DNA of 49,621 nt, counting the filler, from Sphacelaria rigidula (taxonomy: Eukaryota): assembly GCA_964200075.2 (NCBI GenBank). It is 3 parts of 3 records of this genome, joined end to end, with 100 filler letters (N's around TTAATTAATTAA, not from the genome) between each part and the next. Parts side by side here need not be neighbours in the genome. Positions count along the whole stretch, not along the records: positions 1 to 16,475 come from CAXNAA020001345.1; 2 more parts are not named here. One strand, given 5' to 3'. Under the pieces are notes generated by a model, which worked only from the letters and a program-made list of their open reading frames with translations, had not been told where the DNA came from and did not search any database. A program made the position numbers and the translations under genes. Shown in pieces: positions 1-44,215 of this stretch; positions within the stretch are counted from its first letter, which is position 1; every line of letters begins with the position of its first letter.

Positions 1-955
1 GGACTCGGGACCCGAATCTTGGCCACGGCATCTTGCACCCAAAATTGCGCTCAATCTGTACCCATAACATAGGTGTCACACGAGTTTTGAAGATCCGGGG
101 CCGAAGATCTGTTGCCATAACATCCGGCCTAATAAGGACCCCAATTTGGCCCATATCGGGGAAGCTTAGATTCATTTGTCACGATTTGAGAACGGTTTTA
201 CACGAATTTGAGCCCAGATCCGTGGAAAATCGAGGTCCCCCGAATCTGTAGCAACTGCCGTACGTATGTTGACGTACAGTGATAGGGCAACAGGCGTTTG
301 GTATTTTTGCAACAACACCAGCAGACAGTTTTGTGACAGCACAGACAGTGCCTGCGAGCGCCGGCTGCTGGAGCAGCCCCGCATGAAGTTTGATCAGCGG
401 ATAAGAAGTGTTGACGCCGTACCTGCGGTGATGGCAATTTTTTATGCCGCACTGTACTGCTGTTTGTATGATAATGACGAACGGTACTACTGTACAACCC
501 TACACTCTGCTGTCACGGTACTTGCAGGGTGATGAATGACACTGCACTCGTGAATTCTTGTCGCACACTGTGCACTGTTCTCGCAATGCCGACTACGGTA
601 CCATCATGTGTTACCACAGGGCATTATCGTGTACTGTGATTGTGGAGTGTACTTCACAACATTATACCCTAGGGTACCACGGTACGACGCTGCTCTTGAA
701 GGATGATTCCCTGCCTCCCTGTTCTTCGGCTTCTCTGTCTGTGATATCACACCTGCCCAGAAAATGACTGTTCGTGTACAGAACAATAAAAAAATCTGTG
801 AAGCCACACAGGGGTACACACGAATCTGAGTTTCACAAATCTGGGCCTCCCCGATTTGGCACAGATTCGGGTCCCGCCAGATTCGGGATTGGCTGCCATA
901 CACAGTGGTCTCATAACTCGCAAAATTGAGGTGAGAAACGGCGATTTAGGAATCG

Positions 956-1765
956 GGCCGGGCGAAATTCGGAACAATATTTTCAAGGCCGTTTACAGGC
1001 CCAGGTTCGGTGCTTGTGCCTTGAATCTGTGTGGAACCTGGCTAGGCCATAACCGACCAAAAAAGTGGGGAAGGTTTACATATATACACATATTTCACTT
1101 GCTTAGGACGCTGCTGTAAAGTAAAGACCATATTTTCACGAGAAGGCCTTTACCCCTCTCAAAAACAAAATGAAGGGCCCATCTTTTTCTTCGGCATGCC
1201 TTTGCAATTCTCCATGATGAGTTTCAAATTTCAGTTGTTAAAACTAAGCTGAAAAACTGATATCAGGTCCGAGAGCGCGGTATGTTTTTCCCTCAAAACT
1301 CCCCTGAGGAACAAAAGAAAAATGAAGAAAAATGAAAAACAAAAAACGATTATTATATTCTTCATTGTGCAGTGGCGATTATCCGAACGAAATTTCAAAG
1401 CACAACTCTCAAGAACTGAGACGCAATATCCAGATTTAGTGCATCAAGTGCCTCTGCTCGAAATAAGTTGATTTTAGTGTTGAAACTTATGTGCGCCATA
1501 TCTCGAGACAGATGACGAATTAGGCAAAAGTGGAGGTATTGATCGTTTTCCCGTTCTCCAGGGAAGGTTCACACCAAAATTCGTCATCATCCGCTGTATA
1601 TATCGTTCCTTCGGGGTTTCCTAAAGACTTGATTATTGACGCTACCTCCGTACGGTTTAGAAATTACTAGACATTAGATTTCACAATGAGAAGAAAATGG
1701 CCCAGACTTCTGAGCACATGGGCATCTTCCCCATGATCAGACGATTAATACGATATGCAGATCGA
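956..1765 (+). repeat. Dispersed repeat (probable non-autonomous DNA transposon remnant), copy 1; boundaries approximate
   Basis: Aligns by eye over several hundred bp to the reverse complement of ~10540-11700. Shared blocks include acgaaatttcaaagcacaact, tatccagatttagtgcat, gctacctccgtacggt and aaaatggcccagactt. Confidence 0.75.
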
Positions 1766-4529
1766 GGAAAATCATACCGACAGACAACTGTAGAGACCAC
1801 CGATTCGTTTCGATGAAGGGGAGGGGCTGAAGGTGTGACGAAAAGAAAGCAAAAGTTATACTCGCACTCGTCCATACAGATTTTGTATTGAACTTACAGT
1901 ACCAGACATCAGTTGATTGCGATAGACTGTATACATACGAGTACTGTGTCAGCCACCCTGCAGAAAAGTTGCATTTTTGTTGTTCTAGCTTTGCTTGGGA
2001 GCGTGTAAAGGTATACCACAATCATGGTGATAATGTTTCATCGGAACCACGCTCTCACGTAAGTTGGTGCAGTCGCTTAATTGTCGCGCAGGCAGCCAGC
2101 CACCGCATTGTGTGGGACTTCGGGTATAATACAAGCTGTGTGAAAATACCACGCATAACTACCGTCATGCGTCATAATTAGTAGAAATTTCGGAATATGT
2201 CATGTCTCGAGTATGTATCGATGTGACACCCGTATCGTGGGATAATCGGGGCCTATTTCCCATCACAGAAAAAGACCATGTCAGCATCATTGCATTCTTT
2301 TCTTGCGCAATGCAGTCGCATCAATCTCGAGTTGCGTCCATTTGTTTCCACACAGTTGACGATTAATGTCGCGTCTTCCTGGCCCATCCTCTGTATATTG
2401 TAAATAATTATCTTGTTTTTTTTCCTTGAAGGAAGGAGGGTAGCTGCGGCCCATCCTCTGGTACGTCGACTTGTGGTGACCTCCTCTTGCCTGCATTCTC
2501 CAGAGGGCAGCTCAAGAGACGCGGGGAGTAGTGAACAACACGAGTGTTGAAAGACGAATCAGCATCCATGATCACGTGAGTGTAGTGGTACGGTACCGAC
2601 GTGTGCCGTAAGTTTTGTCTTTGTTTTGCAGCCTCCAATTTGCATGTATATGATTTTGCCCCAGAGGGTGAAGATGAGATGCTCGTGCTATACATGCCAC
2701 ATGCGAAAGTCGTGGGATATGCGCAAATGCTCTGTCGTAGGGGGACGTGACTGCTGGGGAGCAGTATGCTACTCTTTTTACGTCTAGTTGACGACACCCG
2801 TACATGTGCTGTACTTTGTACATCGATGTGTGCTCTATTTGTTCAGCAGTAATACACTAGACATGACCTGTCTCTTGTGTTTTTATGACGACGCTACGTG
2901 CCTACGTAGAGCCCAAGGGGAAGCATGTTTCCCTCATTTTCCTACCCGTTGCCATCGACTCGTCTTTATTTGACCTTCATTTCATTTTTTTTATTACTCA
3001 TTTTATCTTCTCTTGTTCAACCTCCAGTACGCAGGCTATGTAGAGGATATCCTTGAAAAAAATCTCTGACCGCGAGGTTTGATACATCGAGCAAATGTAC
3101 CGGAAATAATAAATCTGATTAAAGAAATGAAGTTCGTCTGGAAGCTCGGGAGCGCCGGTTGAGCGAAGTTCTGTTTCGAAGTGTAGCAGTGTATTGACGG
3201 GGGTTGCTTAGCTCTACAGTTCCTCACCGTGCATAATATGCGCAGACATCATTATGGGCACAGTTGTGCACCCATTGTGCTTCACACTGCCACACTGGCC
3301 CGGAGGGCACAATGAAACATATTGCTAACTGATGTTTCATGTCCGCACGGAAAGGCTCCGTCGCTCTTGTCCGATACTGCCTTGCCTTGCCCTGCCTTCT
3401 GACCCTCCATTTTCATTTGTACTTGCTTCTGACATCGCTTTGCCACCTCAGAGCGCAAACATGGAAACACTTCCACTTCGTCGCCTTCACGAAGGAAAAT
3501 GAGCACATGCCGTGGCAAGAACACGAGCCCCAGGGCAACTTTTTTCTTCGAGGTACCAGGTAAGAGACCCACGCAAATTTCGAGATTGGCAGTCCGAGCT
3601 TGCTTCGAAGGTGGCTCATATACTACATTTACAGTAATAATGAGATCATAAGGTCCAAACCTCATCTTTTGGAGCATCAAGTCCATCCCTTTCAAAGACG
3701 CAACAATATTATAGTAGATCCTGGTATCCCATGATGCTGATTTCGATCCCTTCTGTAAGTTTCATTATTGGTTTGGGGGGCGCGTCGGGAAGTGCTGCCA
3801 AACTGGATTGCGCAACACTCGTCGGCGAGACTCAGACGCTTCGTTGGACGGCGCCATTGGTGCGCTTTTCGAAGTATTCAAGTATTCCCCGCTAGGCCAT
3901 AGTTGGAGTCGAAGCTGTCGAGGATACACACGTACAACGAGGGCGTAAGCACAGTATGTCTGGCACCTAGTGTCCTTCCCAACTTCACCTGCGGCACTGT
4001 CAGGTTCACGAGCTGTGTTTTGTGCTCCGACTCCACAGCGCATCCTCCATTCCTGTTCGACGTATTTCAGTATCTTTGCCGCCGAATCTGACGAAGTGAT
4101 ATCGCCCTGGTCTCCTTGTCTCCGTTCCCGTCTGGCATGTCGAATTGTCGCTCGGCACCGCACCTGTTCAGCAGGAGGCTGCAAGATGTGTTGGATTCTC
4201 AAGAGGGCCATGTGGCCATGACCGCGGTGAGTGAGGGGTTCGTGTGTACGCGTTGAGGGGCGACGCAAGCTTTTTTCGATGTTCGCCGGTACCGCGCCAG
4301 GGTGACTGACCACATCCAAAGTGTGCTATAGTACGTTGTGCTGCTATGGTATTGCGTACCGTACAGGTCGCCACGTGTGGTGTCACAAAACAGTAAATGC
4401 TTTCTGCGCGCAAAACTATCGGAATCCCGTGGCAGGTGGCCGGCTTGACGATGTGTTTCCGCCTGTACGTGTGTGCGGTAGTGTACCTGTACGGCAATTA
4501 TGACCCAAACTGACATAGAGGAAATTTCC

Positions 4530-5042
4530 AAGGTTATGTTGTGTAGGGTACGGGTACGCTCGATAGGTTATGAGATTTCTTGCAGAACTTGGAGAACCTT
4601 TCGGGTAGGGCGTGAATGTTGTATAAAAACCCGTACCCGCACCCAGGTATTCCAAGGTTATAATATAACGTGGAATTGTCGGGTACCAGCACGAGAGTCT
4701 CGCAGCACTCACAGAATATGTCGGGTAGGGTATGAGTGTTGTACAGAAACCTGTATTTACACAAGGGTATTTACCCAAGGGAATACCACAGCCCCAGGTA
4801 ACGGATATGGAAGGCTTACAGAGATTTCAGCACTTGAGAGTACGGGTATGGATGCTGTGGAGAAAGCCGTACTTTCACCCGAGTATTACTACGAGAGTAT
4901 AACATGACCTTGGGTACGCGGATGGAAGGCTTCAAGAACTTGCGGAACTGTCGGGTAGGGTATGGGAGGCTTACCAACTCATACAACTGTTGATTATGGG
5001 TAATACCCGGGTAAATACCTCAGGTATACAAAAAAACGTACC
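4530..5042. repeat. Degenerate internally repetitive element rich in TACCC/GGGTA motifs
   Basis: Recurrent tcgggtaggg (~4601, 4721, 4951), gggtat, taccc and cagaa motifs. No convincing coding frame. Confidence 0.55.
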
Positions 5043-5692
5043 CTACAGTACATAACCTCGGGAAATATTGCTGCTGAAGCTGCTCGAACTTGCCGTGAAG
5101 AGCATGTTTATATAATCGTTGCTTTCTCGACACATCAGGAAGCAGCAATGACACCGTCCGGGCGACTTGATATAGCTCATATCAACCGCACTTGTCCTTC
5201 CAGTAGTCTCCTCTCCGAGTGGCAATGCGACCGGCTTGACGAGTTGATGAGGTTGTTTCCCTTGGGGAGGTGACTAGGTGGTCCTTACTGTCCCGACGTA
5301 TGCGCGCACAGGTTGATCCCACTACTTGACCTCAATACATATCGTCGGTTCGTGGGACCAGCCTGTAAACACAAGGGGCGCATATTGAGGTGTAGCTCCA
5401 CCGGACATGTCGTGTCGCGACTGCGCCTCTGCATCTTCTCTTTCCGTAGGGAATTTTTACTCTCGATATGCTAGACGCAGATCTTTTGCGGCGTTCTATT
5501 TTGCCATCATATAGTTGTCATGCAGTCGACACCCTGGCAAGGTGCAGGGTTCCCCGAGCGACCGCTCGTCCGTTTTTTCGCACTCGGCTCTACCCTCTTC
5601 CCCGCCCCCCTGTCGACTGCCCACTCTCATACTCCCACCCCGCGTGCTCTTCTCACGGCAAACCGCCCTTTGCTGGATTGTAGGATGTCCAA

Positions 5693-8600
5693 ATGCCAGT
5701 TTCAGTGGAGGTTGGCGTCGTCGCCGCACTTTTGTTAGTTGGAGCTCTTTTCTGGCTGTGGCGGTATGATGCGAAAATGGAAAAGGCCCTACAAACCGCC
5801 CTGGAGTCTGAGCAAGAACGCCTGGAGAGCGCTCTGCGCCATAAAGAAGTGGCTCGACGACGCGCTGAGAGCGAGGAGGCTGGAGAGCACAGGACCCGCG
5901 CCAGGGTCGTGGAGGCTGAAGCCCTTCTGAGGGCACGACGAGCTCGGGCCGACGGCGCCGTGCGCCGACTGGAGATGGCGAAAATCTCCAACAAGGACGA
6001 GGTAACTTCGTTCGAGGTAATTGTGGGAGCTTTGAAGGAGACAGCCCCAAGTAAGAATCGAGAGCTCGGGGCTGTTCTTGAAAAGCACCCGATCAGCTTG
6101 GAGCTGAACTTGGTTGTGGCAGGGAAGTGGACGACAACGGCTCGAGCGGTACGGGTGAAGGATAACTATTGAGATCTATTGCGAAGATGGGGGTTATTGC
6201 TGCCGGTCACGGCGACGAGTCGTTTAGCCAGTGCAGGACATGTCTGAGAAGCTCAGCCAGCCTTGTTACCCTCCATGTTTCCCTGCTCGTACCTCGTCTC
6301 ACGACTCAGATCGTCGATCTGGAAGCCCAGGTCGCGCGGCACAAGGCGCGAACAACGCAGATGAAGAACGAGCTTCGGCTGGAGGTTGAAGCCGCAAAGG
6401 CTCGTGATGCCGCTGCTGCTCGCAAGCACCGGGCACAGGTGGAAGCGGAGGCTGCCGCAACCGCTGTTAAGGTCGCAGCTGAGAGGGAAGCTGCAAGGAT
6501 TCGGCGGATGCACGCCGAGCTCGAGGCGCACGCCGTTGAAATCGAGCAGAGAACCATACCCGAGGTTCAGGCAAGGCTCGTCGGAGCGGCGGCGGTAGAG
6601 GCTGAGGAGGAGGTAGACGTGGAGCCGCAGGCATCACAGCTCGACAGTGAGGTGAGCATTCACAGTAGGAAAGTAGCACATCATGGCACTAGTAATAATA
6701 TTCGGAGTAGGAGTGGGAAGAGTAGCGGTACAGTAGTAGTAGAACAGTAAGCCGTAGCGACACTGCAAGGGTTCGAAACATTGGTGAAGACGGTTCTTTA
6801 ACGCCGAATATTTCGGCTTTGCCTCGTGTCTTTTCATTCCTCGGGTGAGACAAGAAGTAGAAGGCTCGGCACAAGGCACCTCTCTCCGCGTCTTGAGGCA
6901 TATTGTTGGCTAGACTACAGAATCGGCAAGTGTTGTTCATCGATGCGATCTGACCTCGGGTCTTGGTTCTTGTGGTTGATTGCACCGACCGCCCCGTTCC
7001 CTCTCTTCCGTAGGTGGAGAACTGGGTCGCGGGCAACCTGAAGCTCGCTTTCCGCGGTATGGTCCGCCGCACTGCAGAGGCTGCGGGGAGGATGGGCGAT
7101 GTAGCACAGCGTCTCAGTTTCGCGATGCGCGCGCTGGAGCCCACGCTGGAGCACAATCTGTCCGGTCTGAATCTACCTTCAAACGTTCTGTCCCGGGGGG
7201 AGTTCACCACGACCACGGTGGTCACTCTCCCGATCATGGGGCAGACACATGACGAGTTCGTCGTGAAGACGAAGAAGGAGGTGTGTATTTCGAGACCAAG
7301 TGGTGTTGTACGAAAGGTTTTGAGTGGGTTTATTTTGACAACAGCAGAAGGCGACATACTCGTCATGTAGCGGGTGCACGGACAGCAGCAGCCACTGGAT
7401 TGGAGTAGAAATGAGGCGGTCACGTTTGTGTGCCTGTGTGAAAGCCTCAACGTATTTCGATGCCGCTGCTTGATAACTGTGTGCTCAACGTCGCCCCCTC
7501 TCCATGCAAGGCACGAAGCAAAACCGGCGAACTAGAGAGAGCTCTAGACAGTAATATATCCCAAGCATCTAGCCGAAGTCGTTCGATGTAGGTTGAATAG
7601 AAAGCAACAGAAGCCGAGGTGCCGTGGTTGATATCTATCAAAATTTAGCATCATGCCTGTGCTGTGTATTCGGTTACGCCCGCACTCAGTCCTATGTATG
7701 TGTACGATCAGGAGGATACGTGAGATACGATGCAGTTGATGTTGGATGATGACATCACGGAATTGCGAGGGAATGTAGGATTGGACCAACCGGGGGATTG
7801 GGGGTGGCATGCGCCCACAATACGTGTCTAATGACACATGTATCGCGATCACATCTCTCCCCGGGGCAGGAGCAGTTTACCCCACCGTGGCTCAGTTGCG
7901 TGTTTCTACTTGTTCTACATGTGCAGATTCCACATCGTGTGGTGAGTGCGTGTTGCAAGGAGTTAATAAAAAAGGGTGAACACCCTGTCTCCTCTGTGTA
8001 CCAGTCTTCCCCAACGATTTTACCTTACTCAGTGCGAGCTTACACGCTGGGAGAGGAGGTGAGGATGAGCACACAGACATCAAGCAGCGGAATCCAAAAA
8101 TGGTGACGCTCTTACATAGGCACACAAACGTAACCGCCTCATTTCCACTCCATTCCAGTGGCTGCTGCTGTGCGTGCACCCGCTACATGACGAATGTGTC
8201 GCCTCGTGCTGTTGTGAAAATAAACCCCTTCAGACGCTCTCCTACAACACCACTTGGTCTCAAAAGACACACCTCCTTCCTCGTCTTCACGGCGTACTTG
8301 GCGTCTGTCTGCCCCATGATCGGGAGAGTGACCACTGTGGTTGTGGCGAACTCGCCCCTGGACAGGACGTTGGACGCTGGGCCCAGCGTCCAACGTCCAG
8401 TCCAGGGGCGAGTTCGCCACAACAATAGTGGTCACCCTCCCCATTCTGGGGTAGACAGACGCCAAGTACGCCGTGAAGACGAGGAAGGAGGTGTTTATTT
8501 TGAGACCAAGTGGTGTTGTAGGAGAGCGTCTAAGGGGGTTGTTTATTATTACAACAGCACGAGGCGACACATTCGTCATGTAGCGGGTGCACGCACAGCA

Positions 8601-11600
8601 GCAGCCACTGGAGTGGAGTGGAAATGAGGCGGTTACGTGTGTGTGCCTGTGCGAGAGCCTCGACGTGTTTCGATCGCGCTGCTTGATACCTGTGTGCTCA
8701 ACGTCGCCTCCTCTCCGTGCGAGGCACGAAGCGAAAACGGCGAAGTAGATGGAGCTCTGAACAATATATCCCCCAAGCATCTAGCCGAAGTAGTTCGATG
8801 TGGGTTGAAAAGAAAGCAACAGAAGCCAAGATATCGTGGTTGATTTCTATCGAAATTCAGCATCATACGCGTGCTGTGCCTTACATCACAATTTCCCCGT
8901 GTTTTGTTCTGCTTCTGCTTCTGTGGTTCCTTGAGCAGACCTACGACGAGGAGGCCCGCAAGTGTTGCATTCGGGAGAGTATTGTTCTGACCAGGTGACA
9001 AACAAAAATACCTCATAGTCGCGGTGGGCTGGGCAAAACATGTTTTTACAGCTGGGCTGACCAAGACTTTCTATCGGCGGTTGAACAGCTCTTCTCTGCT
9101 TCTCAAGTTTAGGAAGACATTTCTTGAGGGAACGGGGGGCGGGATAATAACCCGATGACGAAAAATCCTCTGACCGCTTACGTTGATGTTTTTTATGCGT
9201 GCAGGAGGCCCTTGTGAAACTTTGGTTCAAAACTACTCGAATTGGGCGGGGCATTTCACTTTTTGTGCTGTGAGTAGTCGATGATGTCATGCATACCTAG
9301 TTGAGGATGCCCGCTCTTTTTTCATGGAGATATGGATTGTGAGGGAGTGCAAGTAGTGAAGTAGCTGAGCACTTATCGGAGGTGTGGTGAACTATCCACT
9401 GCCAGTACTACAGAAATGTAGAGCCAATCCTCAAGTTCAACAGAGGAACAAGTACGATGCATTGGCTCGTCCAGGTAGTGATGGCCCTATTGACGCAACA
9501 TGGTTGTGTGATTTCAACCATGTGACCGCCAGGGTGGATCAGTTGTCGAATCGGCACACCCATTTCACAAAAAAATATATGGGAGACCCAGATTAGCCAC
9601 CGAGGCGCTCAGAGGATCAAAATTGTTGCCGTTATAGGCAATGTTTTACACGTCGGACACATCATGATCCATTATTATTAGTGTACTGCTCCGGATCATT
9701 TTTTCCCCTGCTCCCATAGTTCCTCCCTTCAGCGCTGGACGCCGACCATGCGGAGCACCGCAAAGTCGCGTTTTGGCTTCTCTGACCCCGCGGTCACGTA
9801 TTATGTGTTTTGGGACCAACGGATGGATTCGAGAGTCTTCTTTGGTGAGCAATTTTGGACGGATTATGGACTGTCTGTCCAGTGTGTGCAAACTTTCACC
9901 TTCTTGGGTGAAGCATTTTCCATCTCCTGACTTCTGAGACGTCTCTGCTTCTCTGGCTGCATTCCCCCGATCACCGCCGCTGTTTGTTGTCATTGTTGCT
10001 ACTGTTGTTGATCCTACTGTAAGGCTCGGGCGGCACGAGAACATCGTGTCTGTGCTCGCAATGAACGACACCCTTGAGTCTATGCCGCTGCTAATGCCCA
10101 AGGCGGAGGGCACTTTGACGGCGCTCTTGCACGAAGGGTGTCCCACCATGACGGACATGATCAGGTCACGTATATTGTCATCGCAAAGTCTACACTCGGG
10201 TCCCATTTGCACTTTCTCCCGTCCCCGCTAAGCTGTATGACTGTTCTCACCGGTTTTCGCCCGAATTTATAGTGGACCAGGTGTATACCCGCCAAATACT
10301 TTGATGTCATTGCCAGCATTTAACTATGAGTAGAAGTCGTCGCGAACCCATTCTCAAGTCAGCCGTGTTCGGACTACCGTGTTTCGCAGCGGTACGGGCT
10401 GGCACTACCGGCCGCGCCTTGAATCTGTCCTACAGCATCTCTGTTTCCCCGTCTGATTTGGCCATACGAGCTGGCCCGGCCTAGACGCGGATTTAAGCTC
10501 TCAAATCAAAATATCATCGGTACGGACGAGTTGGGCCGTGATCCGCACGTCGTGTTGGTCGTCTGATCAAGAGGAAGGTGTCCATCTGCTCAAAAGTCTG
10601 GGCCATTTTTTTCTCGTTGATTAACCCCATGTCTAGTTTTGTCTAGTCATTCCTATACCGTACGGAGGTAGCGTTCAGATTGATCGAGGAATTGATTGTC
10701 GTACTTCAAGTGATCCCCCCGGGATCCAACCGTGGTCACATGATAGACGCATCCAAGAAAAAAAAACTGAAACACTAGCTGAAGGAAAAGAAGGAACAGA
10801 CAAAGTCGAACAGAGCGACATCGTAGACATACTATGTTCTATATGAAATCCCGAATGATACATACAGCGGATCATGACGATTTTTGGTGCGGACATCCCC
10901 TGGAGCACAGGGAGGCGATCGATATCCTCACCTTCGCCTAATTCGATATCTATCTCGAGATAAGGCACACATAGGATTCCATACTAGAATCAGTATCTCA
11001 CGAGCAGAGGCACTAAATGCACTAAATCTGGATACCGCGTCTCAGTTTTTGACAGTTGTGCTTTGAAATTTCGTGAGGATAATCGCTAGTGCACAATGAA
11101 GGGAAACAAACACTTTTTCTGTTTCGATTTGTTTTTCAAGTTATTCGCTTTTTTAGGGGAGTTTTCAGGGAAAATGGACAAAGCTCTCGGACCTCACCTC
11201 GGTTTTTCAGCTCAATTTTTAGAAGTTTGATTCGAAACTTATCATGGAAAATCGCAAAAACGTGCCTTGGAAAAAAAAGTAGGCCTTCGTGTTTTTTCCT
11301 GGACAGTTAAAATATGGTGTTTATTTTATTATTTACGAAGCATATCTTTATGTTTTTTCATTTGTCGCACTTTAAACCCCTTCCCTTCCTCGGGATGCTC
11401 CGTCTCGAAAGGGATGCGTGGTCAATGGTCAAACGACTAAGGCAAGCAACAAATGAGTACGCCCCTCCTTCCTCGGGATGAGTCCGTGGTCTCAAGGCAT
11501 TAGCCCATATCTTCCCTGGTAGTTTTGACAATACTCAAACGTCCTAAACATGTGAAAAAACGATGAAAAACCAACCGTTCTCACTTTTCATGGTTCATTA

Positions 11601-12282
11601 TGGCCTAGCGAGGTCCCACCAATAATTTCAATACACAAGTACCAGACCTGGACCGGTAAATGGCCTGCAAAATACTGTTCCGAATTCATATTGGCCCGGT
11701 TTTTGGAAGGTTCATTCACAACTCAATACTTAGAGCTGGACCCTAGAATTTGGTATGAATAATCAATGGGGCATATTAAAAAAAAAATGTGCATGTATCC
11801 GAAGATTTTTTTTCTTTCATGAGTTAAAGGCAATGATCAGTTTTCAGGTTTCCATAAAATGCAGTTAAATCATGAAGAACAAACCTTTGGGTCCATGCCT
11901 ATTTTTTTTTGTTATGCCCTATTGATTTTCCATACCAAGTTTTACGGTCCAATCTCAAGTATTTGCGAATGGGCCTTCAAACTTCAAATCTACTTCTAGG
12001 CTCGCCCAGCTCGTAGTAGTTTCATCCATGGCTGATTCTCTCTTCATTTCGCACGCGCGCGCGCAACCTGAAGTATTACTAGACAAGGAAACGACGACGT
12101 ACAACAAATCCGCACATGATTTTGGTTTGTATGTATGCACGCATGCACAGCTTTCGTACTGGTCGCAAAGACGAAGTCACACAACTTCTCTGTCCTTTCC
12201 GCGGGTATCGTGGAACACCAGCACGTTTCAGGTCGCCGCGGGCGAAGCCGTAGCACCTGCAACGCGTGGCTCTATGGTCATG

Positions 12283-12336
<54 letters not shown>

Positions 12337-15300
12337 CTCCGTCTCCGTCTCCGTCTCCGTCTCCGTATCTCTTTTATTCATTATTGTGCACATGATTTGA
12401 CTTTTTACGGTACTTTTCCTACGTTTCGCTCGATGGCTTTCTTACAAACTTGCGGTGCCTGAAGATAGCTTTCAATCTAAGCAATGACGCCTTCAAGTGA
12501 TGACTTCGTTGTCGATGTCGGTTGGTTTGCGCTCTGCTAATTTCTTTTTCTGCCGCCTTGATTCTTCCAGGGCCCTTCACGGTGTGGCGCGCGGCGTCCA
12601 CCACATGCAAGATCTCGACTTGGTGCACGGCGACCTTAAGCCCGATAATGTGCTGATTTACCGTGATGCGAGCGGAATGACCGAAGCGAAGTTGTGCGAT
12701 TTCGCGTTCGCAACCGGTGAGCCGTTTGTGTATCCGAGCATACAAATTGTACACACACGTACGAAGACACACGATGGGTACTAGATTGCAACCGTCTGTG
12801 TTGTTCTTCAGTCCTCCAGGGTGTGTGTGCCTGTGTGCCTGTGTGTTTCGCCTGCGTATATTCAAGTCGTGGCATGTTAAACCATGACTATCCTTATGAG
12901 GTAAATGCATACGCATTTATGTTTGACCAAGAAGATTTTCAAGCCTGTCTGCACAGCGGACACTTCAGGACGGCTTCATTAGAAGACACGGCTGGTCTGA
13001 ATTACTAGGTTCAGATGTATTGTGTAGTTGGTGTCTATCTTTTATCAAGGAAGTGAAAACCACCCCGCGTCTGTCGAGTAGATCTACCCTATTTTCCTCG
13101 GAATCGCGCGGGTCCCTGTTTACTTTACTCCGCTGCACTCGCTGGCTTCATCACGAGCACAGACCAGTACAGTACAGTTAGTCAAAATCATGCAATGTTC
13201 AATCGATAAATGACGAGGTGTTGGCTCAGTACTTGTCGTGCACGTCGAACACACAGTATACTGTATATAACCCGGTTAGTTGCTTCGTCCATTGTACCTT
13301 GACCCCTCGTCCAAGCGTGAGTCTCCCAGAAAAGCATCAGCCATCTACATTGGTGTTGTAGTAAAGTATATTGGTTCGAGTTTTTCCGCACAGCGCCTCA
13401 TCCTGTTCGTTCGTGTGTGCGGTTTGATGTGACTTGTGTGCGTGGATGCGTTGTGCATGGCGATCAGAACGTAATGCGAGGAAAGAGGCGGATACAGGAA
13501 CTCTGGGATTTATTCCCGTCGAGAATATGGGAAAGTCGGTGGTTAGTGACTTTGCTCAGGACTGGATGTCCATGGGTGTCATCCTGGATGTATGTTTTCG
13601 CAAGCGGGAACACGGAGACTACATGTTCAAGGTAAATTTGTTTTCACAAGCTTGGATCTCTAAATCAACGAGGCCCATCGGGGGCAATTGCTCCTAGCCT
13701 CGCATGCCCAACAACAAAAGCACATGTCGGTCGACTGGTGGCGCCGGGTCTATTCAGGGTTCTAAATTCGGTACAGTATGGACTCTTTTTTGTTTGTTTG
13801 CCTTGGTGAATCATTGATATCTTCCGTGCACTAGTGCCGTACTGTCAAGGTCCATTGCTTCGGGCTTCCGATTGATCATTGTGTTCCTACTGAGCATATG
13901 CTATCTCAGTGTTTTCAAAGTCAGTTCAAGTACGTGTACAGTACGTAAAAGTAGCAGCAGCAGCAGCAGCAGCAACCCTGTGAAAGGGGAGACGGCGTTG
14001 GCGCCAGTTTGATTCTCTGCGAAAAAGCCTGTATTTTGCGTCTATCTGTCCTCTTCATGCCTACACCAATCTTCACCTCGTGCGACAAGCGATGGATACT
14101 GTTGAAGGAAAACTGTTACATTTTCTTTTCCAGACTCAACATCAGCGATGGGATGCCTCAGCATCTGCTCGAAACAGCGGAAGCGGAAGAAGGGACAGTG
14201 ATTCTCGGATTCGTACCCAGGGTTGCTTCATGAGTGTATGGTACGGTGTCGGCCGATCACCACTGGCGGTGTATCATCACATACTTGTTGCGTCCTCTTT
14301 GCCCGTGCTGTTTTGACGGTGACCACATGGCATATGCAGGAGGCTCTCAGCGATGAAGAAAAGCAGGAGCTGGCCGTTATAAGGCGTAAGGGCACGAGGT
14401 TGGGTGTGGACTACCGCAACCTTGATGAGTTCCATGAGTGGGACGTGAGTATTTGAAAAACTGCCAAAGTAGCCGAATTGACGTTCATCTCGGAACCTTT
14501 TTTTTTTTGCGGCGCATCATCCAATATTCTAAGCAATCTGACAAAAGCTGCTGCTGATATGAAGCGATGTGGTGTGATGGTACGTCAAAACTGTTTGCGG
14601 AAACTCAGCACTCTAGTGGCGTGGCTGGAACTGTCTTCTACCGTAACGTAAAAGACGCCACGCCATCATCGCCCAATTGTGGTCTTGATGGAGGATGACT
14701 CACGTGTACTGTACTGCATTTTGGTATGTTTCTCAGAAACTAGGGGTCTCCGACATGACGTGAGCAAAGCTTACGAAGGAATGTGTGTCCCGCAAATCGA
14801 CTGATGCACACGCAACACTTTTAAGAAATGTCGCTTAACGACGTTTTGATGCGACCTGCCGTCTTTTCCTCCGGGTTCGTTTTCTCCCTGTCGTCTTGCC
14901 ATCCTCTATTGCCGAAACGTTCGTCCCNNNNNNNNNCTCCCTTCCTCCTCCCGTTTCTCTTCCCTCCCCCCCTCCTCTCCCCCCCCCCTCTGCCCTCCGC
15001 CCCCCCCCCCCCCCCCCCCCCCTCCCCCACACGCCAAATCCCTCCATTGACGTTACTGACCATCTATGGTTGCCCGGCGGCACAAGGGGATGCTGGAACC
15101 CCGACAGAACGCAATGTACCGTATTACAATCCGATCGCGCTGTGCGTTGACGTAATGGGATGCAGTACAACCTGACCAAGATATGCCTGGAGGAGGAGAG
15201 GTACAGCAAGCTCGCCGTCCCGCACCGCTACGATGATGATGTGCCGTGCCGCACTGTGGTGAGTATGTTGTCTGGTCCAACAAACCTGCGCTGTGTTCTG

Positions 15301-16475: not shown

Positions 16476-16575
16476 NNNNNNNNNNNNNNNNNNNNNNNNN
16501 NNNNNNNNNNNNNNNNNNNTTAATTAATTAANNNNNNNNNNNNNNNNNNNNNNNNNNNNNNNNNNNNNNNNNNNN
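16476..16575. other. Artificial contig-joining linker (44 N + TTAATTAATTAA + 44 N)
   Basis: Exactly 100 nt, with stop codons in all six frames. Identical structure at 33050-33149. Confidence 0.97.
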
Positions 16576-24300: not shown

Positions 24301-26381
24301 TCTACCCTGAAACTGTATGATGAGTTGTGAGGATAGCCGTGTGCATTGTGGCAGCGAATGGATTGATGAGTGATCCTACGATAGGGGGGAGGGAGGGGGG
24401 GAGGGGGGGCGTAATTCCACGAAAAAGGGCTCATGGGTGTGTCAGACGACCTAACGCACTCGCGTTGTGTTTGTATTTAAGTGAAAACGATGGCAAGTAG
24501 TATGTGAGGTTTTTTGCTTTCGTCTCATCTATAGTGGGCACCGGTCTACACCTTTCGGTATGCGTGGGCGCACCAGCCGGGGTCACACAGGAGGATGGCC
24601 AACACGAGAGAGCTTTTGTGCTTTTTTTTCTTTCTCGTTCTCCACCTTCCTTCTGCGTATGGACGAGGGATATTTGTTGGTAGGTGCGTTCGAACAACTT
24701 TCACTACTTTTGCGGGAGAAATGTCTCCAACCACTACCCCCCCCCCTCCCCCCCCCGGCCGCCGCCCTAGCGTAGGATGAACTCGACTAGCGTAGGATGA
24801 ACTTGACACGTACCTCATGTGGCGTCCATGTGTTCATTTCATACGTGTACTTCCTTTTACCTCCTTCCTACGTTTGGGTATATACCTTTTTGAGGTCTGG
24901 TGGATTATCAAGGTAGGCATATGGACTGCATAACTGTTCGATTGCGTCGATAGGGGTACTCTGCATGAGACAACCTACTGTACTCCGTACCTCTTCGAAA
25001 CCGGCTGTGGTGCCCGAGCTGGTGAAAGTTCCAAGGTTTATATAATCCCAAGAGCCGTCTTCGGTCTGAATGTAGTAGGAGATACCAACGGTCCTCTGAC
25101 GCGTGTCGCCGGCATAGAAGGCTGGACCATGCGCACACGGAAACGAACACGTCAATAGTTGTTCGTCGGAGTCATCGATAACAACGGGGAACGCTAGGCC
25201 AAAATCTAGTACCGCTTCCGAGAGAGTTGTGCCTCCATCGAGCATACCCCTGAAGGTATAATATAGAATTAGTACAGTACAAGAACGTATCATGGGTTTA
25301 TGATATTTGGCTGACGCAGGACGTTCGTTTAGGTGTGCTGGCTATAGCATTCATGTCCCGTAACCGGGTGAATACATTGAAACAGCCGATCATCAAAGTT
25401 GAGCATGAAGCTCTTCATTGAGGATGAAAACCCGGAGAATGAAGACCTTCGTATCCACATCAAATCTTCGAAATATGGTTCCATTCCCTCACCTATTGGT
25501 GGATATTGACAATTGCTACATGCCTCACAAAAAAAATTTCGATAACCGAAATGTTGGGGTCCTAGATGAAAAAACAAGTTGGGAGAATCTAGGTGATCCG
25601 ATCGGATCGCCGAATTGCCCCGACATTGTTACTTCACCTATGACCCCAACATTTCGGTTATCAAAATCACATCTTGTATCACGTGTAGTACTTGTCAATA
25701 GCTATCAGAAGGTGAAGGAAGGGAACCATATTTCAAAATTTCGGGGTGGATACAAAGGTCTTCATTCTCCGGGTTTTCATCCTCAATGAAAAGCTTCATG
25801 CTCAACTTTGATGACCGGCTGTTTTTGGCGAAAAAAAGGGTTGAACAAAGCCCGTTCGCAGCAGCAAGCAGCGTCGGGAGGATGGTGAGAACAGGAGGGT
25901 GCCGTTTACACTCGTCAAAGGAAGAACCTCTGTCGTTTGGGGAGGAACTGTGGTTTGTTGAGCGGTAGTTTGCAGATTTGTACTCATTTCTACGCGATTG
26001 TAGAGCGTCCACACGGTACGGCATTGAGACATGTCTTGCAAAAATGGCGTCGTTGACGAGGAGGTACGGACCTCAAGCATATCCGAAAAAGTCGGACGAA
26101 ACTTGGTCGACTATCGTCCCGAGGTTTGCAGCACGCTGTTATTTCGTTACCGAAATCGCCGCAATTGCGTTCATTCGACGATAATGATTCGTTGTACAAG
26201 GTGGAAGAAGAAGCTACTAGGGTAGACTGAATTTTCCTTCGCTTCTTGCGTACTCACCGATTTGAATTTGGGCCATGTGCTGAGGTTCATGGAAGTCGAA
26301 GACCAAGGCGCACTCGTCCAAGTTATCGGGATCGTATGGCTGCTGACAAGACCAACGGGATTCCACGTCGAGATCATCGTC
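21400..26381 (-). CDS. F5/8 type C (discoidin/CBM32-like) domain protein, partial model; 5' and 3' ends uncertain
   Basis: Phase-consistent GT-AG exons: 26381-26258 (DDDLDVESRWSCQQPYDPDNLDECALVFDFHEPQHMAQIQI), 25121-24991 (AFYAGDTRQRTV...TFTSSGTTAGFEE), 24081-23977 (...LSPNEWISISE), 23553-23520 (VKLEIFGVYCE), 22240-22012 (DSNPNQTCEPDPVEDRL...GKHAG) and tentatively 21556-21400. The SRWSC / AFYxGDxR / SSGTTxGFE / WxSIxEV motifs match the F5/8C-type domain as I recall it from brown algal proteins. Confidence 0.7.
24368..24784. mobile_element. MITE of the GAG-terminal (Sola2-like) family in an intron of the F5/8C gene
   Basis: Left end gagtgatcctacgataggg and right end ccctagcgtaggatgaactc. The right TIR is tandemly duplicated (to ~24803). 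No clean TSD. Confidence 0.6.
25380..25823. repeat. Loop-less palindrome / foldback element (~220-bp arms) in an intron of the F5/8C gene
   Basis: Centre gatccga|tcggatc at 25601/25602 and ends aaacagcc...ggctgttt. Long matching blocks include ttcattgaggatgaaaacccggagaatgaagacctt and gataaccgaaatgttggggtc. TTG lies on both flanks. Confidence 0.9.
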
Positions 26382-29713: not shown

Positions 29714-30137
29714 AACAGCCTGGATCCGCTTTTGAGGTTCAACATTTGGGTGAGGTTCAACTCGAAAGCAGTGTTTTCCCTGACCTAAAGTCATGACCAA
29801 TGAATTTCATATGGACGACCTCATGTCCCCTGACCTCCTTGAGACTATTTCTGGGGGTTGCCCGTCTTCCGTGCCCCCAAAGCGTATATGCGAAAGAACC
29901 TATTCCGGGCTAAAAACGTCCCCTTTTTCGCCCCGATATCGAGGCAAAAAGGTGCTTTAGCACATACGCTTTGGGGGCACGGAAGACGGGCAGCCCCCAG
30001 AAATAGTTTCAAGGAGGTCGGGGGGCATGAGGTCGTTCATTTGAAATTCATTGATCATGACGCTAGGTCAGGGGAAGCCCTGTTTTCGAGTTGAACCTCA
30101 CCCAAATGTTGAACCTCAAAAACGGATCCAGGCTGTT
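29714..30137. mobile_element. Foldback MITE, ~190-bp inverted arms, 4-bp TSD ATGC
   Basis: aacagcctggatccg...cggatccaggctgtt. Arms pair inward to ~29902/29948 around a short spacer. ATGC lies immediately left and right. Confidence 0.88.
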
Positions 30138-32069: not shown

Positions 32070-32444
32070 GAGTCAACGATGAGAGAAGGTACTGTCCTCG
32101 GCTTTTCTCGGGCGTCAGAAAACGATGCCGGTAATATTTCGAGCCCGAAGAAAAATAGCAAAGGACAGGTAGTTTTTCATGTATGAAGTGTCTTATTTTC
32201 GCATCTGTATCGAGTTGTCAGCCACAAAATTTCTATTCCGAAACGCGAACGGGTGCAATTATCTGTTGCTGAATACTACTCTCAATATATATATATATAT
32301 ACCACCAAATCAAAGATATTTTGAGAATCCTGGCGCTGTTTTTCTTGATGCCTGAAGGAAGCCGAGGACATCGCCCCCCTCACCTTTTGACTGACCTTCT
32401 AAGGCTTGAATATAGACGAATTTCACCATCTGCTCATACTTGTT

Positions 32445-32701
32445 GAGTGATGCTGCGGTAGGGGTACACAAATATTTTCTGAGGCTAGAATTGTTAGGAG
32501 CCCTTAATCTCATCCCATATACGACTCATGAAAATGTGCGAAAGTACGCCAGCATTACTATTCCAATGTGCTGGGGATATCCCGAATGAATCTGCAAACG
32601 GGGATGCCCCGACCCATATTCTTGTGCGTCTAGAATCGTTAGGAGCCCCTGAACCAGACAAACGTTCGCGAAAAAAGTGCACCCCTACCGTAGCGTTGCT
32701 C
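32445..32701. mobile_element. 257-bp MITE, GAG...CTC termini, TSD TGTT (Sola2-like)
   Basis: gagtgatgctgcggtaggggtacac ... gtgcacccctaccgtagcgttgctc, with TGTT at 32441-32444 and 32702-32705. Confidence 0.82.
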
Positions 32702-32937: not shown

Positions 32938-33228
32938 AAGTGAGGCCACGGTAGGGGTGCATTTTTTAGACTAGATAACAGCCGATTTTGTATTTTGGGG
33001 TTCAAACAAAATATGGGGCTGAAGTGGCATATCTGTCTTGCACGAAAGANNNNNNNNNNNNNNNNNNNNNNNNNNNNNNNNNNNNNNNNNNNNTTAATTA
33101 ATTAANNNNNNNNNNNNNNNNNNNNNNNNNNNNNNNNNNNNNNNNNNNNCGTGTTTTGGATGAGATAAGGGGCTCCTAATAATTCTAACCTCAGAAATTA
33201 TTTGTGTACCCCTACCGTAGCGTCACTC
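32938..33228. mobile_element. Two MITE ends of the same GAG-terminal family on either side of the assembly linker
   Basis: aagtgaggccacggtaggggtgc at 32938 and gtacccctaccgtagcgtcactc ending at 33228. 33150-33228 is an inverted copy of 32445-32523. The flanks do not match, so these are probably different copies. Confidence 0.6.
33050..33149. other. Artificial contig-joining linker (44 N + TTAATTAATTAA + 44 N)
   Basis: Same structure as 16476-16575. Confidence 0.97.
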
Positions 33229-34300
33229 AGCGCATTTCCGGAGCGATCGAAAAAATATATTTATACTTGTGATGTCAGTCAAATGTACAGAGACTCGTCG
33301 CTCCCCGTATCCCTCACCATCGAAAGACGACGTGTATGTGTCGGGCAGGTGGGCGCGCTTTGCCTCTCTGTCTCGGTACCGGCCGTGGAAGAGATCAAGT
33401 GGGGACTCTTGGCCGTGGAGCATGTCGATACGTCATGGGGATCAACTAGACTCTATATTCACGAGAAACTGGTCTAGGAATTGTGTTTGTGTGACACTTG
33501 GAATATAATGCTCATGTTTGCCGACACGTCTCAGGTTTGTGTCACACATGATGTTTGGTCTATTAATAGGAAGCGAGAGCTTCGCCTTGTTGATAGGTAG
33601 ATGTAGGAGACCTGACCTATGGCGGATAATGGCACTTTGACTCACTCGACCACCCAGTTGATTTTCTGGTAGCCAAAACCTTCTGTGGGTACTTTGGATG
33701 CGAGCGAACCCCAGGATCAAGCTCAAGTGGGTTAGGAATGGGAATTCAGGTGTGGCTCCCGACTTGTGCCTCATCATTACGAATGTCTCTACAAAAAGCA
33801 GTCGGGCCTTGAACAAGGTCCCACAAGACGAAGGACGCTTTCGAAGGAACATCTTCGCGCCTTCTATGGCATCAGCTAACCACAATGGAACGTCCAAGTG
33901 GTGCGGGAGCGTGCGTTGTGTGTGTTAGCTGACCTGTCCCAACCAGATACCCGTGGGCATCTTACCCACTGCAGCAGACAGCTCAAGCAACAGAAATCTG
34001 GTCTTGCTCATCCTCAATTGTACAATACTTCTTCACCAGGTCATACTCCATCAACAATTCTCAAGAGCTTACGGAACCATGCGGACCCATACCAATAAAG
34101 CCCTGATGAAACCCTCCAGACATGTATTAGCCAAAAGGCTGCGGTGCACCTGTCAGGATCCAAGACTTAAAGTATGCCAAGCTACGGGAACGAGAGACCG
34201 AAATGAAATAACAGAACTCAAGAACAGCACGGCTTCGAATCACATTGACAGCATTCGTCCCCGCCAACCTCCACCACCCGGATATAACTCCAAGGTGCGG

Positions 34301-43300: not shown

Positions 43301-44215
43301 CAGCAGGCGCCGGCGCCGCCTGCCACGGCTGGGTGCGTGGTTCAATATCAAACGGAACAAGCAGCCGATGGTTGCAATCGGGATTCAAGCTTCCAACAGG
43401 CTGTGGTCTGACACAGTATTAGGCCGTGCCTTATCAAATTGTTTTCGTGTCGAAAATGTGCAGCCGAATCGAACTTGTTCGTATCTGATGCGCTCCACGT
43501 TGTTTATTTTCTGAGATGGTTCAGAACATGAATGCCGTCGGCGCACCAGGCGCGAGCGAACTCGATTCCATCGCACGTTTTTGAGTCGAAAACAATTTGA
43601 TGAGATACGAGTAGTAGCATCCAGCATCATTACACGATGTTCAAGCCTCGTGTTGTCTGATGTTGCTCCACGACCAAGATAAGCAGACAGAGGAATACCA
43701 TCTGCGTGCTGCAACAGCACTACCGCCTGTTTCGTCTTCGTGCTTGCCAGAGTTCAGAGTTCGTCACTCCTGTAGTAGACTTCGCCCATCACAGCCTAAC
43801 TGAGCCCTGCGCTGCCTGTTTTGAACCGTGAGTCGGGGGCGCCTGTCCTGAGCCCAACGAATTTCCTATGAATTTTCCATTGTGAACAATGTTTGGTTTG
43901 GGGATGGATCGTCCAATTTCCCTACACTTGTAACGAACGATGCTGTCGACTGCAGTTTCCAATTTGACAAATGAGATGATTGCGCATAGATCAGACATAG
44001 CATGGCACACTGAACAAAGTAAAGCAAAGGCAAGCGCAAAGTACAGTGAGAATAGCAATTCAGTTCAGCGCGAGTAAAGCCCTCGCCGGGGTTCCGCTTC
44101 GGCGACCGGACAACAGAGTACAACTTCTGTAAACATATCACATCAACCGCTTCATTCGACGCTTACCGAGGGCAGCTACAGGTCGCCTACTGGCGGTACC
44201 GAAGCGCTGAAGCAT
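34301..44215 (-). CDS. START (lipid-binding) domain protein with mitochondrial-type N-terminus and C-terminal coiled coil, 11 exons, ~344 aa
   Basis: Phase-consistent exons: 44215-44167, 43328-43222, 41037-40951, 39816-39685, 38750-38614, 38169-38118, 37823-37725, 37267-37220, 36601-36491, 35120-35025, 34417-34301 (1035 nt, ATG to TGA). START hallmarks are RRKEWDSV, LVSSRDFCYV, STRGDV and EMDVKGWLPVKVV. Confidence 0.85.
43425..43609. repeat. Imperfect ~185-nt hairpin (MITE remnant or pre-miRNA-like) in intron 1 of the START gene
   Basis: atcaaattgttttcg...ttctga [gatggt] tcagaa...cgaaaacaatttgat. Arms of ~85 nt with scattered mismatches. Confidence 0.7.

Follow-up and report, generated by a model that had tools for sequence, protein, structure and literature searches.

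A Palindrome Composed of Repeated Copies of an Exon–Intron Boundary Within Intron 3 of a Kinase-Like Gene

Introduction

Some intronic microRNAs (miRNAs) repress their own host gene, by means of seed-type sites that are usually located in the 3′ untranslated region. Plant MIRNA genes are said to originate from inverted duplication of target sequence, as Allen et al. reportedly described in 2004. The locus described here lies in a stretch of DNA of 49,621 nucleotides (nt) from Sphacelaria rigidula (assembly GCA_964200075.2), which was analyzed at its full length and is called the window below. Within this window, the third intron of a kinase-like gene contains a long palindrome that is homologous to the end of the gene's own exon 3 and to the adjoining intron. 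An earlier reading of the DNA, here called the original prediction, had proposed it as a candidate self-targeting hairpin RNA (hpRNA) or proto-miRNA locus. The palindrome is part of a larger three-copy structure, of which the right arm extends to 8878. This structure is probably a tolerated and decaying relic of an inverted triplication that arose by template switching, perhaps with incidental small interfering RNAs (siRNAs). With self-repressing intronic miRNAs it would share the logic of a first-order negative feedback encoded in an intron, but its complementarity stems from common descent with a coding exon and its processing is only putative.

Four groups of described systems are closest to this locus. 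Young plant MIRNA genes arise by inverted duplication of target sequence (PMC3237417). Drosophila hpRNAs are defined by Dcr-2-dependent siRNAs of 21-22 nt, together with derepression of hairpin and target in dcr-2 mutants (PMC10317233). In the brown algae Ectocarpus and Saccharina, 75% of the miRNA loci lie in genes, nearly all of them in introns and on the host strand, and the excerpts of the two surveys describe pre-miRNAs without similarity to protein-coding genes (PMC4513859, PMC5381526). Lastly, inverted triplications have been ascribed to iterative template switching (PMC11293582, PMC10766183, PMC4689423).

Three Copies of the Exon 3–Intron 3 Boundary

The boundary between exon 3 and intron 3 is present in three copies, which follow each other in direct (copy A, in place), inverted (copy L, the left arm of the palindrome) and direct (copy R, the right arm) order. 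The locus lies within the uninterrupted stretch 1-14927 of the window. Its features are the following:

7014-7280, + strand: exon 3 of the host kinase-like gene, 89 codons, with the acceptor AG at 7012-7013; covered by RNA-like contigs
7179-7666, + strand: copy A, the segment in place, which reaches from the final part of exon 3 across the 5′ splice site and takes in the first 386 nt of intron 3
7218-7247, + strand: target stretch of 30 nt in exon 3, the exact complement of 8306-8335, with a run length of exactly 30
7281-8938, + strand: intron 3, 1658 nt, GT..AG, enclosing the whole inserted block
7667-8044, + strand: single-copy intron spacer between A and L, 378 nt, with no second match in the window (BLAST)
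8045-8381, + strand: left arm L, 337 nt, which copies 7179-7510 in inverted orientation (repeat search, BLAST, MAFFT)
8306-8335, + strand: antisense stretch of 30 nt in the left arm, which in the hairpin faces the right arm with 25 Watson-Crick pairs, 2 G:U pairs and 3 unpaired positions
8365-8398, no strand: palindromic center, 34 nt, perfect, with a predicted 4-nt loop at 8380-8383
8382-8721, + strand: right arm R, 340 nt, which copies 7179-7510 in direct orientation (repeat search, BLAST)
8389-8490, + strand: pseudo-exon in the right arm, interrupted in frame by a TAG (8452-8454) and followed by a pseudo-donor GT (8491-8492)
8722-8878, + strand: continuation of the direct copy past the palindrome, matching 7511-7666 (direct repeat families at 87%)
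8939-8994, + strand: exon 4, with contigs in the runs X6 and X7

The three copies differ in length, with 488 nt for A, 337 nt for L and 497 nt for R including its extension. The segment shared between A and the arms, 7179-7510, consists of the final 102 nt of exon 3 (7179-7280), the donor site and approximately 230 nt of intron. According to BLAST, the left arm (8374-8050) is 85.5% identical to 7179-7503 over 325 nt in inverted orientation, and the right arm with its extension (8389-8878) is 83.9% identical to 7179-7666 over 491 columns in direct orientation. In RNA from the + strand, the left arm is antisense to the 5′ splice site and, at 8273-8374, to the terminal part of exon 3. Only the final 60 nt of intron 3 follow R. 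Further copies of the segment were found in the 49.6-kb window neither at the DNA level (BLAST) nor at the protein level (tblastn).

These results reproduce what the original prediction had stated on the arms, namely that both show homology to the 3′ part of exon 3 along with the donor site and the downstream intron, and that the left arm is antisense to exon 3. The perfect complement between 8306-8335 and 7218-7247 that it had reported is exact and precisely 30 nt long, and the peptide difference between arms and exon was obtained again by translation: the encoded peptide reads ...THDEFVVKTKKE in exon 3 and ...TDAKYAVKTRKE in both arms, with SNVLSRGEFATTTVVTLPIMGQTDAKYAVKTRKE in the minus-strand frame of the left arm.

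The Palindrome and Its Predicted Fold

The predicted palindrome without spacer in intron 3, with arms of about 330 bp, was recovered at 8045-8381 / 8382-8721. In a repeat search, the inner parts of the arms (8207-8381 / 8382-8556) abut with a spacer of 0 nt and are 89% complementary, and the outer parts (8045-8225 / 8541-8721) are 88% complementary. A BLAST self-comparison gives an inverted match of 8050-8716 with itself, at 89.6% across 670 columns. A three-way MAFFT alignment gives 303 Watson-Crick, 34 mismatch and 7 indel columns between the arms, with 303 of the 337 aligned positions being complementary.

An RNA fold, which had been proposed along with the original prediction, was calculated for 8040-8725 and yielded -622 kcal/mol, compared to -241 +/- 6 kcal/mol for 20 dinucleotide shuffles (z -59.9). 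In this predicted fold 310 of the 337 left-arm positions are paired, and the unbroken helices measure 90, 48, 34 and 24 bp. The locus thus has the long inverted repeat, folding as extended double-stranded RNA (dsRNA), that the class of hpRNAs and inverted-repeat endogenous siRNAs requires. That both arms are on one RNA, a second requirement of this class, follows indirectly from contigs in which exon 3 is spliced to exon 4, the intron RNA itself not being observed. Antisense complementarity of arm 21-mers to mRNA, a third requirement, is present too: a perfect match to the exon 3/4 mRNA is found for 10 of the 317 21-mers from the left arm, while a further 8 have a single mismatch and 9 have two.

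Comparison With Known Small-RNA Systems

Like young plant MIRNA genes, the locus has arms that match the target beyond a small-RNA site and an antisense arm that keeps a perfect site amid diverging sequence; unlike them, it has arms of 337 nt with a loop of 4 nt and is located within the target gene itself (PMC3237417). The likeness to Drosophila hpRNAs such as Dsim-hp58 lies in the inverted fragment of a coding exon near the progenitor gene, and in a long, near-perfect hairpin with stretches that are fully complementary to the progenitor mRNA (PMC10317233). However, the Drosophila hpRNAs are separate transcription units with proven siRNAs, whereas the kinase locus is known from its sequence; moreover, the kinase hairpin lies within one of its progenitor's introns, and both arms are intronic for two thirds of their length.

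The intronic miRNA loci of brown algae resemble the palindrome in being intronic hairpins on the host strand, with possible co-transcription (PMC4513859, PMC5381526). With its 4-nt loop (8380-8383) and 337-nt arms the locus nevertheless fails the criteria for brown-algal precursors, as the surveys, in their excerpts, reject extended hairpins and loops of <8 nt (PMC4513859, PMC5381526). A miRNA precursor was therefore rejected on the criteria of a terminal loop of >=8 nt and no extended hairpin (PMC5381526). A search of Rfam gave no family at the gathering score, the best being mir-2830 with 44.1 bits versus 70. The miRNA-hairpin matches of Rfam at 8335-8424 are sub-threshold, generic and present on both strands, and were rejected as well.

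Presence of the Structure in Short Reads of Two Studies

The rearrangement is real, and probably local and fairly old. Contigs of the short-read run X1, which possibly is the sample behind the window's own assembly, tile 6700-8482 and 8583-9200 with 0 letters deviating from the window, and the same holds for the contigs at the center (8281-8394, 8367-8398 and 8369-8482). Two of these pieces, 8281-8394 and 8369-8482, contain the arm-specific bases 8364 and 8399 and reach 13 nt past the center. The run X4, which is DNA from a second study, differs from the window by 6 substitutions and one 7-nt deletion. Its contig 6700-8183 links the spacer to the outer part of L, and its contig 8423-9200 links R to its extension and, by way of the last part of the intron, to exon 4. 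The regions that are devoid of contig cover, 8483-8582 for X1 and 8184-8422 for X4, are evidence neither way. Since X4 has its own variants and the same structure, this structure is common to at least two non-identical individuals or strains.

The differences of X4 include positions 8984, 7722, 6806, 9096 and 9118. The change 8984 G>A would turn a Val of exon 4 into Ile, the RNA-like runs having G at this position, and the 7-nt deletion at 7722 is inside the intron spacer. Two variants of X4 fall within the arms, one of which retains its pair as G:U and one of which breaks it.

It is scarcely credible that the palindrome is an artefact of assembly or sequencing, i.e., a fold-back chimera. Fold-back reads are known to give palindromes, no short-read contig was found that bridges the center with at least 31 letters on each side, and X1 is perhaps the same sample as the window assembly. 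However, the 34 substitution columns and 7 indel columns between the arms recur free of error in the X1 contigs, X1 contigs with the arm-specific bases run over the center, and X4, with variants of its own, carries both outer junctions, namely spacer to L and R to intron and exon 4. The arms differ at 41 columns and recur in the short reads of two studies, which disfavors a fold-back read artefact. The original prediction had considered an artefact unlikely because the arms differ, and the recurrence of these differences in contigs of two studies bears this out.

The Host Gene and Its Splicing

The identity of the host gene as a kinase is derived from a downstream exon, as the window region 12488-12784 matches Pkinase in Pfam with an E-value of 5.8e-8 and 32.9 bits, versus a cut-off of 31.7. 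Searches of Pfam gave no match with exon 3 alone, and nothing credible with exons 1-2 and the left-arm pseudo-exon. The original prediction had assigned the glycine-rich loop and the VAIK region to exon 3. The kinase nature of the host was confirmed by the downstream domain, and the motif label is based on inspection and on the position of exon 3 upstream of the ...LGRHENIV exon, with no Pfam match behind it.

Exon 2 ends at 6651, where its sequence matches a loose upstream end of these data, and exon 5 starts at 10024. The joint between exon 3 and exon 4, 7280|8939 with GT..AG, is found in one contig each of X6 and X7, two runs of one study that were judged RNA-like and do not cover the intron interior. 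These contigs cover exon 3 from 7012/7016 to 7278, joined to 8937-8995, and continue into the exon at 10024; the splice joint is absent from the DNA-type runs, one of which bears the label 'algae metagenome'. The exon/intron borders that had been assumed earlier are hereby confirmed, as is transcription through intron 3. From this joint it follows that the gene is expressed, that both arms are transcribed and that the palindrome leaves with intron 3.

The protein searches gave no named relative. A word-index search with the exon 3 peptide among longer proteins returned 142 candidates, with 0 at E <= 0.001. A HMMER scan of 1.84 billion representatives gave 4 matches with E-values from 1e-5 to 1e-3, which were rejected as relatives because they are internally repetitive proteins that were matched in 5-6 stretches. 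For the catalytic exon, 1 of 55 candidates among longer proteins is a match, an unnamed fragment of 110 amino acids with 55% identity. In a metagenome scan, a 21-mer common to all three copies had 0 matches, and patterns of the exon 3 peptide had 346 matches, of which 0 were confirmed by tblastn.

Probable Origin by Template Switching

Two thirds of each arm consist of the host's own intron 3 at 12-14% divergence and the block is inserted in that same intron, which favors a local origin. The direct-inverted-direct order that characterizes an inverted triplication is found here, with A at 7179-7510, L at 8381-8045 and R at 8382-8721. The junctions of the block are marked by short repeats:

8039-8044, + strand: CTTACA, left member of the repeat, abutting L and bounding the inserted block
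8880-8885, + strand: CTTACA, right member of the repeat, one base past the end of R, bounding the block 8045-8879

Between 7000 and 9000, CTTACA occurs at three places (8039, 8111 and 8880). Within the same interval CGCTGGG is present only at 8045-8051 and 8375-8381, which are the two ends of L, and its complement CCCAGCG only at 8382, as the first 7 nt of R. The CGCTGGG ends of L have no homology to copy A.

We infer template switching as the probable origin from these direct repeats, which bound L and the 835-nt block as a whole and are both short. The ancestral intron would have read ...GAG-CTTACA-TCAC..., and the 835-nt block (8045-8879) would have been written in by serial template switches at microhomologies during replication or repair. 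The boundary located 0.9-1.2 kb upstream would thereby have been copied into it twice, once partially and inverted (L) and, immediately after that, once in direct orientation (R), and the three copies may later have swapped patches by gene conversion.

Both the class of inverted triplications flanked by duplications (DUP-TRP/INV-DUP) and origin-dependent inverted-repeat amplification (ODIRA) yield a comparable direct-inverted-direct triplicate, with a palindromic junction between the inverted and a direct copy (PMC11293582, PMC10766183, PMC4689423). The locus differs from the events described there in its scale, which is hundreds of bases instead of kilobases to megabases, and in having unequal copies (488, 337 and 497 nt), a 378-nt spacer and one palindromic junction. 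A plain ODIRA product was rejected, given the unequal copies, the spacer between A and L and the 8044/8045 junction, which is not palindromic. A miniature inverted-repeat transposable element (MITE) or foldback transposon was rejected as well, since the ends of 8045-8879 are not mutual inverted repeats and R exceeds the palindrome by 157 nt. This element class is further ruled out by the host exon and intron content of the block and by the fact that the only copies in the window are local.

Divergence and Probable Gene Conversion Among the Copies

The alignment of the three copies contains 69 variable columns, of which 35 are specific to A, 13 to L and 15 to R, with 6 three-way columns. The classes are not interleaved, and divergence changes along the segment as follows, with borders that were set after inspection of the data:

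7172-7213: A-L 23.8%, A-R 26.2%, L-R 2.4%
7214-7247: A-L 2.9%, A-R 23.5%, L-R 20.6%
7248-7280: A-L 21.2%, A-R 21.2%, L-R 0%
7281-7425: A-L 12.4%, A-R 13.1%, L-R 4.8%
7426-7510: A-L 21.2%, A-R 12.9%, L-R 22.4%

The nearest pair is L-R in 7172-7213 and 7248-7425, L-A in 7214-7247 and A-R in 7426-7510. Three different nearest-neighbor relations over 340 nt suggest patchy gene conversion among the copies. The longest run of R-specific sites has a P of 0.0145 and L-specific sites are concentrated at the outer end of the arm (Mann-Whitney p 1e-4). The outer 85 nt hold 11 of the 13 substitutions specific to L (p 7e-6), at 8048-8117 beside the 8044/8045 junction; this could stem from synthesis that became error-prone once the template had been switched, or from conversion between the arms being weaker at a distance from the center.

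The 30-mer that is complementary to exon 3 sits within a patch of 34 nt in which L equals A and R keeps 7 differences. The density of these 7 differences matches the divergence between A and the arms in the neighboring exon-derived parts, so a short conversion tract from A to L suffices to explain the patch. In addition, a perfect A-L run of at least 30 nt is obtained in 21% of mismatch shuffles (P 0.21).

The mismatches between the arms comprise 11 G:U, 6 A:C and 17 transversions, and strand-specific preservation of pairing among them is not significant (11 G:U versus 6 A:C, p 0.33). Together, the mosaic copies, the stop codon in R and the lack of a significant G:U excess make the evolution of the block look neutral, with no sign in the alignment of selection for the hairpin.

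Points Against a Local Relic and the Question of a Paralog

Several of the results above weigh against a local, neutral relic. The microhomologies invoked for its origin are two short repeats, and the center lacks a bridging contig. The antisense arm keeps the perfect 30-mer where the sense arm has 7 changes, which a proto-miRNA model predicts too. Changes unique to L are found in 0 of 109 exon-derived and 13 of 228 intron-derived columns (p 0.012). When the exon-derived columns are set against the inner intron, the comparison becomes 0 of 109 versus 2 of 145 (p 0.51); as judged from the alignment, the scarcity of L changes extends over the inner 254 nt as a whole and tracks distance from the center and not exon identity. 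Finally, in the exon-derived part the synonymous divergence between A and R is three times the divergence of the intron (53/385, 13.8%; p 0.0018).

This last point is of importance for the origin of the block. Between A and R, the proportion of synonymous differences in the exon-derived part (pS) is 0.417 (10.5 of 25.2 sites) and that of nonsynonymous differences (pN) is 0.142, with a dN/dS of 0.26, and synonymous differences are more numerous than expected from the proportion of synonymous sites (p 0.023). Because of this synonymous excess a simple local copy is insufficient as an explanation, the pattern resembling divergence between two functional coding sequences. It is possible, if doubtful, that the block was copied from a paralog, or that exon 3 was overwritten later and the arms kept its former state. 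The synonymous excess, over both the share of sites and the intron, would fit this variant, and so would the five consecutive residues that differ (HDEFV versus DAKYA) and the A-specific differences, which amount to 17 of 75 in exon-derived columns versus 14 of 145 in the inner intron (p 0.013). On the other hand, the sample is merely 33-34 codons, A-specific differences cluster in the intron too (six sites in 7311-7325), the intron-derived parts of the arms are clearly the host's own intron, and no paralog was found in the window or by the protein and metagenome searches.

The original prediction had concluded from the peptide difference that the arms come from a paralogous copy. The difference stands, but the conclusion is not established by it, as two thirds of each arm are host intron; an origin from a paralog is possible, and the peptide difference alone does not imply it. 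The paralog variant is compatible with every functional reading considered below.

Functional Readings of the Hairpin

As a relic, the block would be a tolerated and slowly decaying by-product. Each pre-mRNA would carry a 337-bp, nearly loopless hairpin (the folding being predicted), which would leave with the accurately spliced intron. The adjoining R would absorb the antisense copy L, so that the exon and the 5′ splice site stay free. This is illustrated by minimum free energy (MFE) folds. With R included (7014-8995), 310 of 337 positions are paired between L and R and 0 between L and A. When R is absent (7014-8381), 289 of 325 positions are paired between A and L and 7271-7290 is buried, including the donor GU at 7281. 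The predicted duplex energies are -538.8 kcal/mol for A:L and -627.5 kcal/mol for L:R. A lone inverted copy would thus mask the splice site and pull the exon into dsRNA, and with R beside it the block may be tolerated. The hairpin is a plausible Dicer substrate that may yield some siRNAs, of which only those from the inner 102 bp would match the mRNA. No sign of upkeep of the hairpin by selection for an siRNA role was seen in the alignment.

The same folds could be read as a cis-acting splicing or kinetic element, in which L, once transcribed, pairs with the 5′ splice site and the adjoining part of exon 3 until R, transcribed seconds later, displaces this pairing; the balance of the two duplexes would thereby tune how fast or how efficiently intron 3 is removed. 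The model would draw on the A-L pairing and the buried donor before R is made, on the release of A once R is present, and on the difference between the two duplex energies. However, this is a thermodynamic prediction alone, the one joint present in the RNA-like contigs is the normal 7280|8939, and neither duplex shows signs of conservation. Moreover, U1 small nuclear ribonucleoprotein normally engages a 5′ splice site long before 760 further nt have been transcribed. Such an element is considered highly unlikely.

According to the idea behind the original prediction, the locus is a selected self-targeting hpRNA or proto-miRNA, which Dicer would cut into siRNAs of ~21 nt; those from the inner part of L would guide Argonaute to exon 3 and to paralogs, with a negative feedback that scales with transcription. 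The long unbroken helices (90, 48, 34 and 24 bp), the sense orientation within a transcribed and spliced intron, the 10 of 317 left-arm 21-mers that are perfect to the mRNA and the perfect 30-mer that is kept in the antisense arm alone are all consistent with it. De novo Drosophila hpRNAs are likewise inverted exon fragments near a progenitor gene (PMC10317233). If the organism is a brown alga, further arguments come from Ectocarpus, which has Dicer, Argonaute and two RNA-dependent RNA polymerase homologues, and in which genes harbor 75% of the miRNA loci, for the most part within introns and in the orientation of the host (PMC4513859); many of its candidates lie on extended hairpins (PMC5381526). 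Nevertheless, as far as can be judged from sequence, selection for such a role is unlikely. Changes that preserve pairing show no strand-specific excess (11 versus 6, p 0.33), and the arms have accumulated 34 mismatch and 7 indel columns, with decay being strongest at the outer ends. The 30-mer is not improbable by chance (P 0.21) and fits a conversion tract, and the exon-derived share is just 102 of 337 bp. An older inverted pseudo-exon in the same gene has been left decaying, and the excerpts of the two brown-algal miRNA surveys contain no loci that resemble protein-coding genes (PMC4513859, PMC5381526).

That the hairpin is a working intronic hpRNA derived from its own exon, with left-arm siRNAs that cleave the host mRNA, and perhaps those of paralogs, at 7218-7247, is quite improbable. 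If this were true, the retention of the 30-mer in the antisense arm only would reflect selection and not gene conversion.

Recurrence and Other Repeats in the Window

The older inverted pseudo-exon is located further downstream in the kinase gene:

12044-12271, - strand: the older of the inverted pseudo-exons, in which the catalytic-loop exon (~12554-12718, + strand) is copied in antisense and decayed; located in the intron upstream of that exon

It lies ~300-500 nt upstream of the catalytic-loop exon. The repeat search identified a core, 12132-12191 / 12685-12744, with 42 of 60 nt matching, and blastn aligned the pseudo-exon with the catalytic exon at 67% over 98 nt (E 2e-4). At the protein level, pairwise BLASTP gave 17 of 48 identities, including KLCDF.FAT (E 1e-5), with tblastn against the whole window reaching just E 0.066. 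A search of Pfam with this pseudo-exon gave no match. Judging from these two cases, inverted copies of a nearby exon seem to arise repeatedly in the kinase gene, the older one being left to decay. Between the second pseudo-exon and the catalytic exon, at ~12283-12441, the intron contains a long CT/GA dinucleotide microsatellite with open reading frames that read LSLSLS... / ERERER....

Other repeats are present in the window as well. Inverted repeats whose arms measure 62-191 nt and lie within 3 kb of each other occur at five further places, 29714-30137, 25380-25824 (with a nested palindrome at 25536-25667), 32444-32523 / 33150-33229, 11725-11963 and 43425-43609. The one at 11725-11963 is in a later intron of the kinase gene and has a sub-threshold match with MIR8562. 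All five are mutually unrelated and single-copy in the window, and could be MITE-like. A dispersed repeat of ~1.1 kb links 10540-11686, in an intron of the kinase gene, to 966-1763, upstream of the gene, in inverted orientation at 76-78%. This repeat is probably a fragment of a transposable element. The identical joints at 16476-16575 and 33050-33149 (44 N + TTAATTAATTAA + 44 N) resemble linkers from assembly or scaffolding more than biology, and so do the 9-N runs at 14928-14936 and 48547-48555.

Implications

Even as a neutral relic, the locus offers a small inverted triplication that is resolved to the nucleotide, with putative microhomologies at its junctions and a patchwork of probable conversion between an exon and its copies in the intron. 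The palindrome also shows a way in which an otherwise dangerous antisense copy of a splice site can be neutralized. If the hairpin is processed, the locus would show a small-RNA regulator emerging within the very gene that it targets. How small-RNA loci of algae originate could then be tested directly, as the 34 differences between the arms assign reads to one arm or the other. Should the organism be a brown alga, it would also be the first exception to surveys that, in their excerpts, are without small-RNA hairpins derived from protein genes (PMC4513859, PMC5381526). A self-targeting hpRNA, if true, would constitute a self-limiting loop at the very beginning of the route that leads from inverted duplication of a target to a small-RNA gene.

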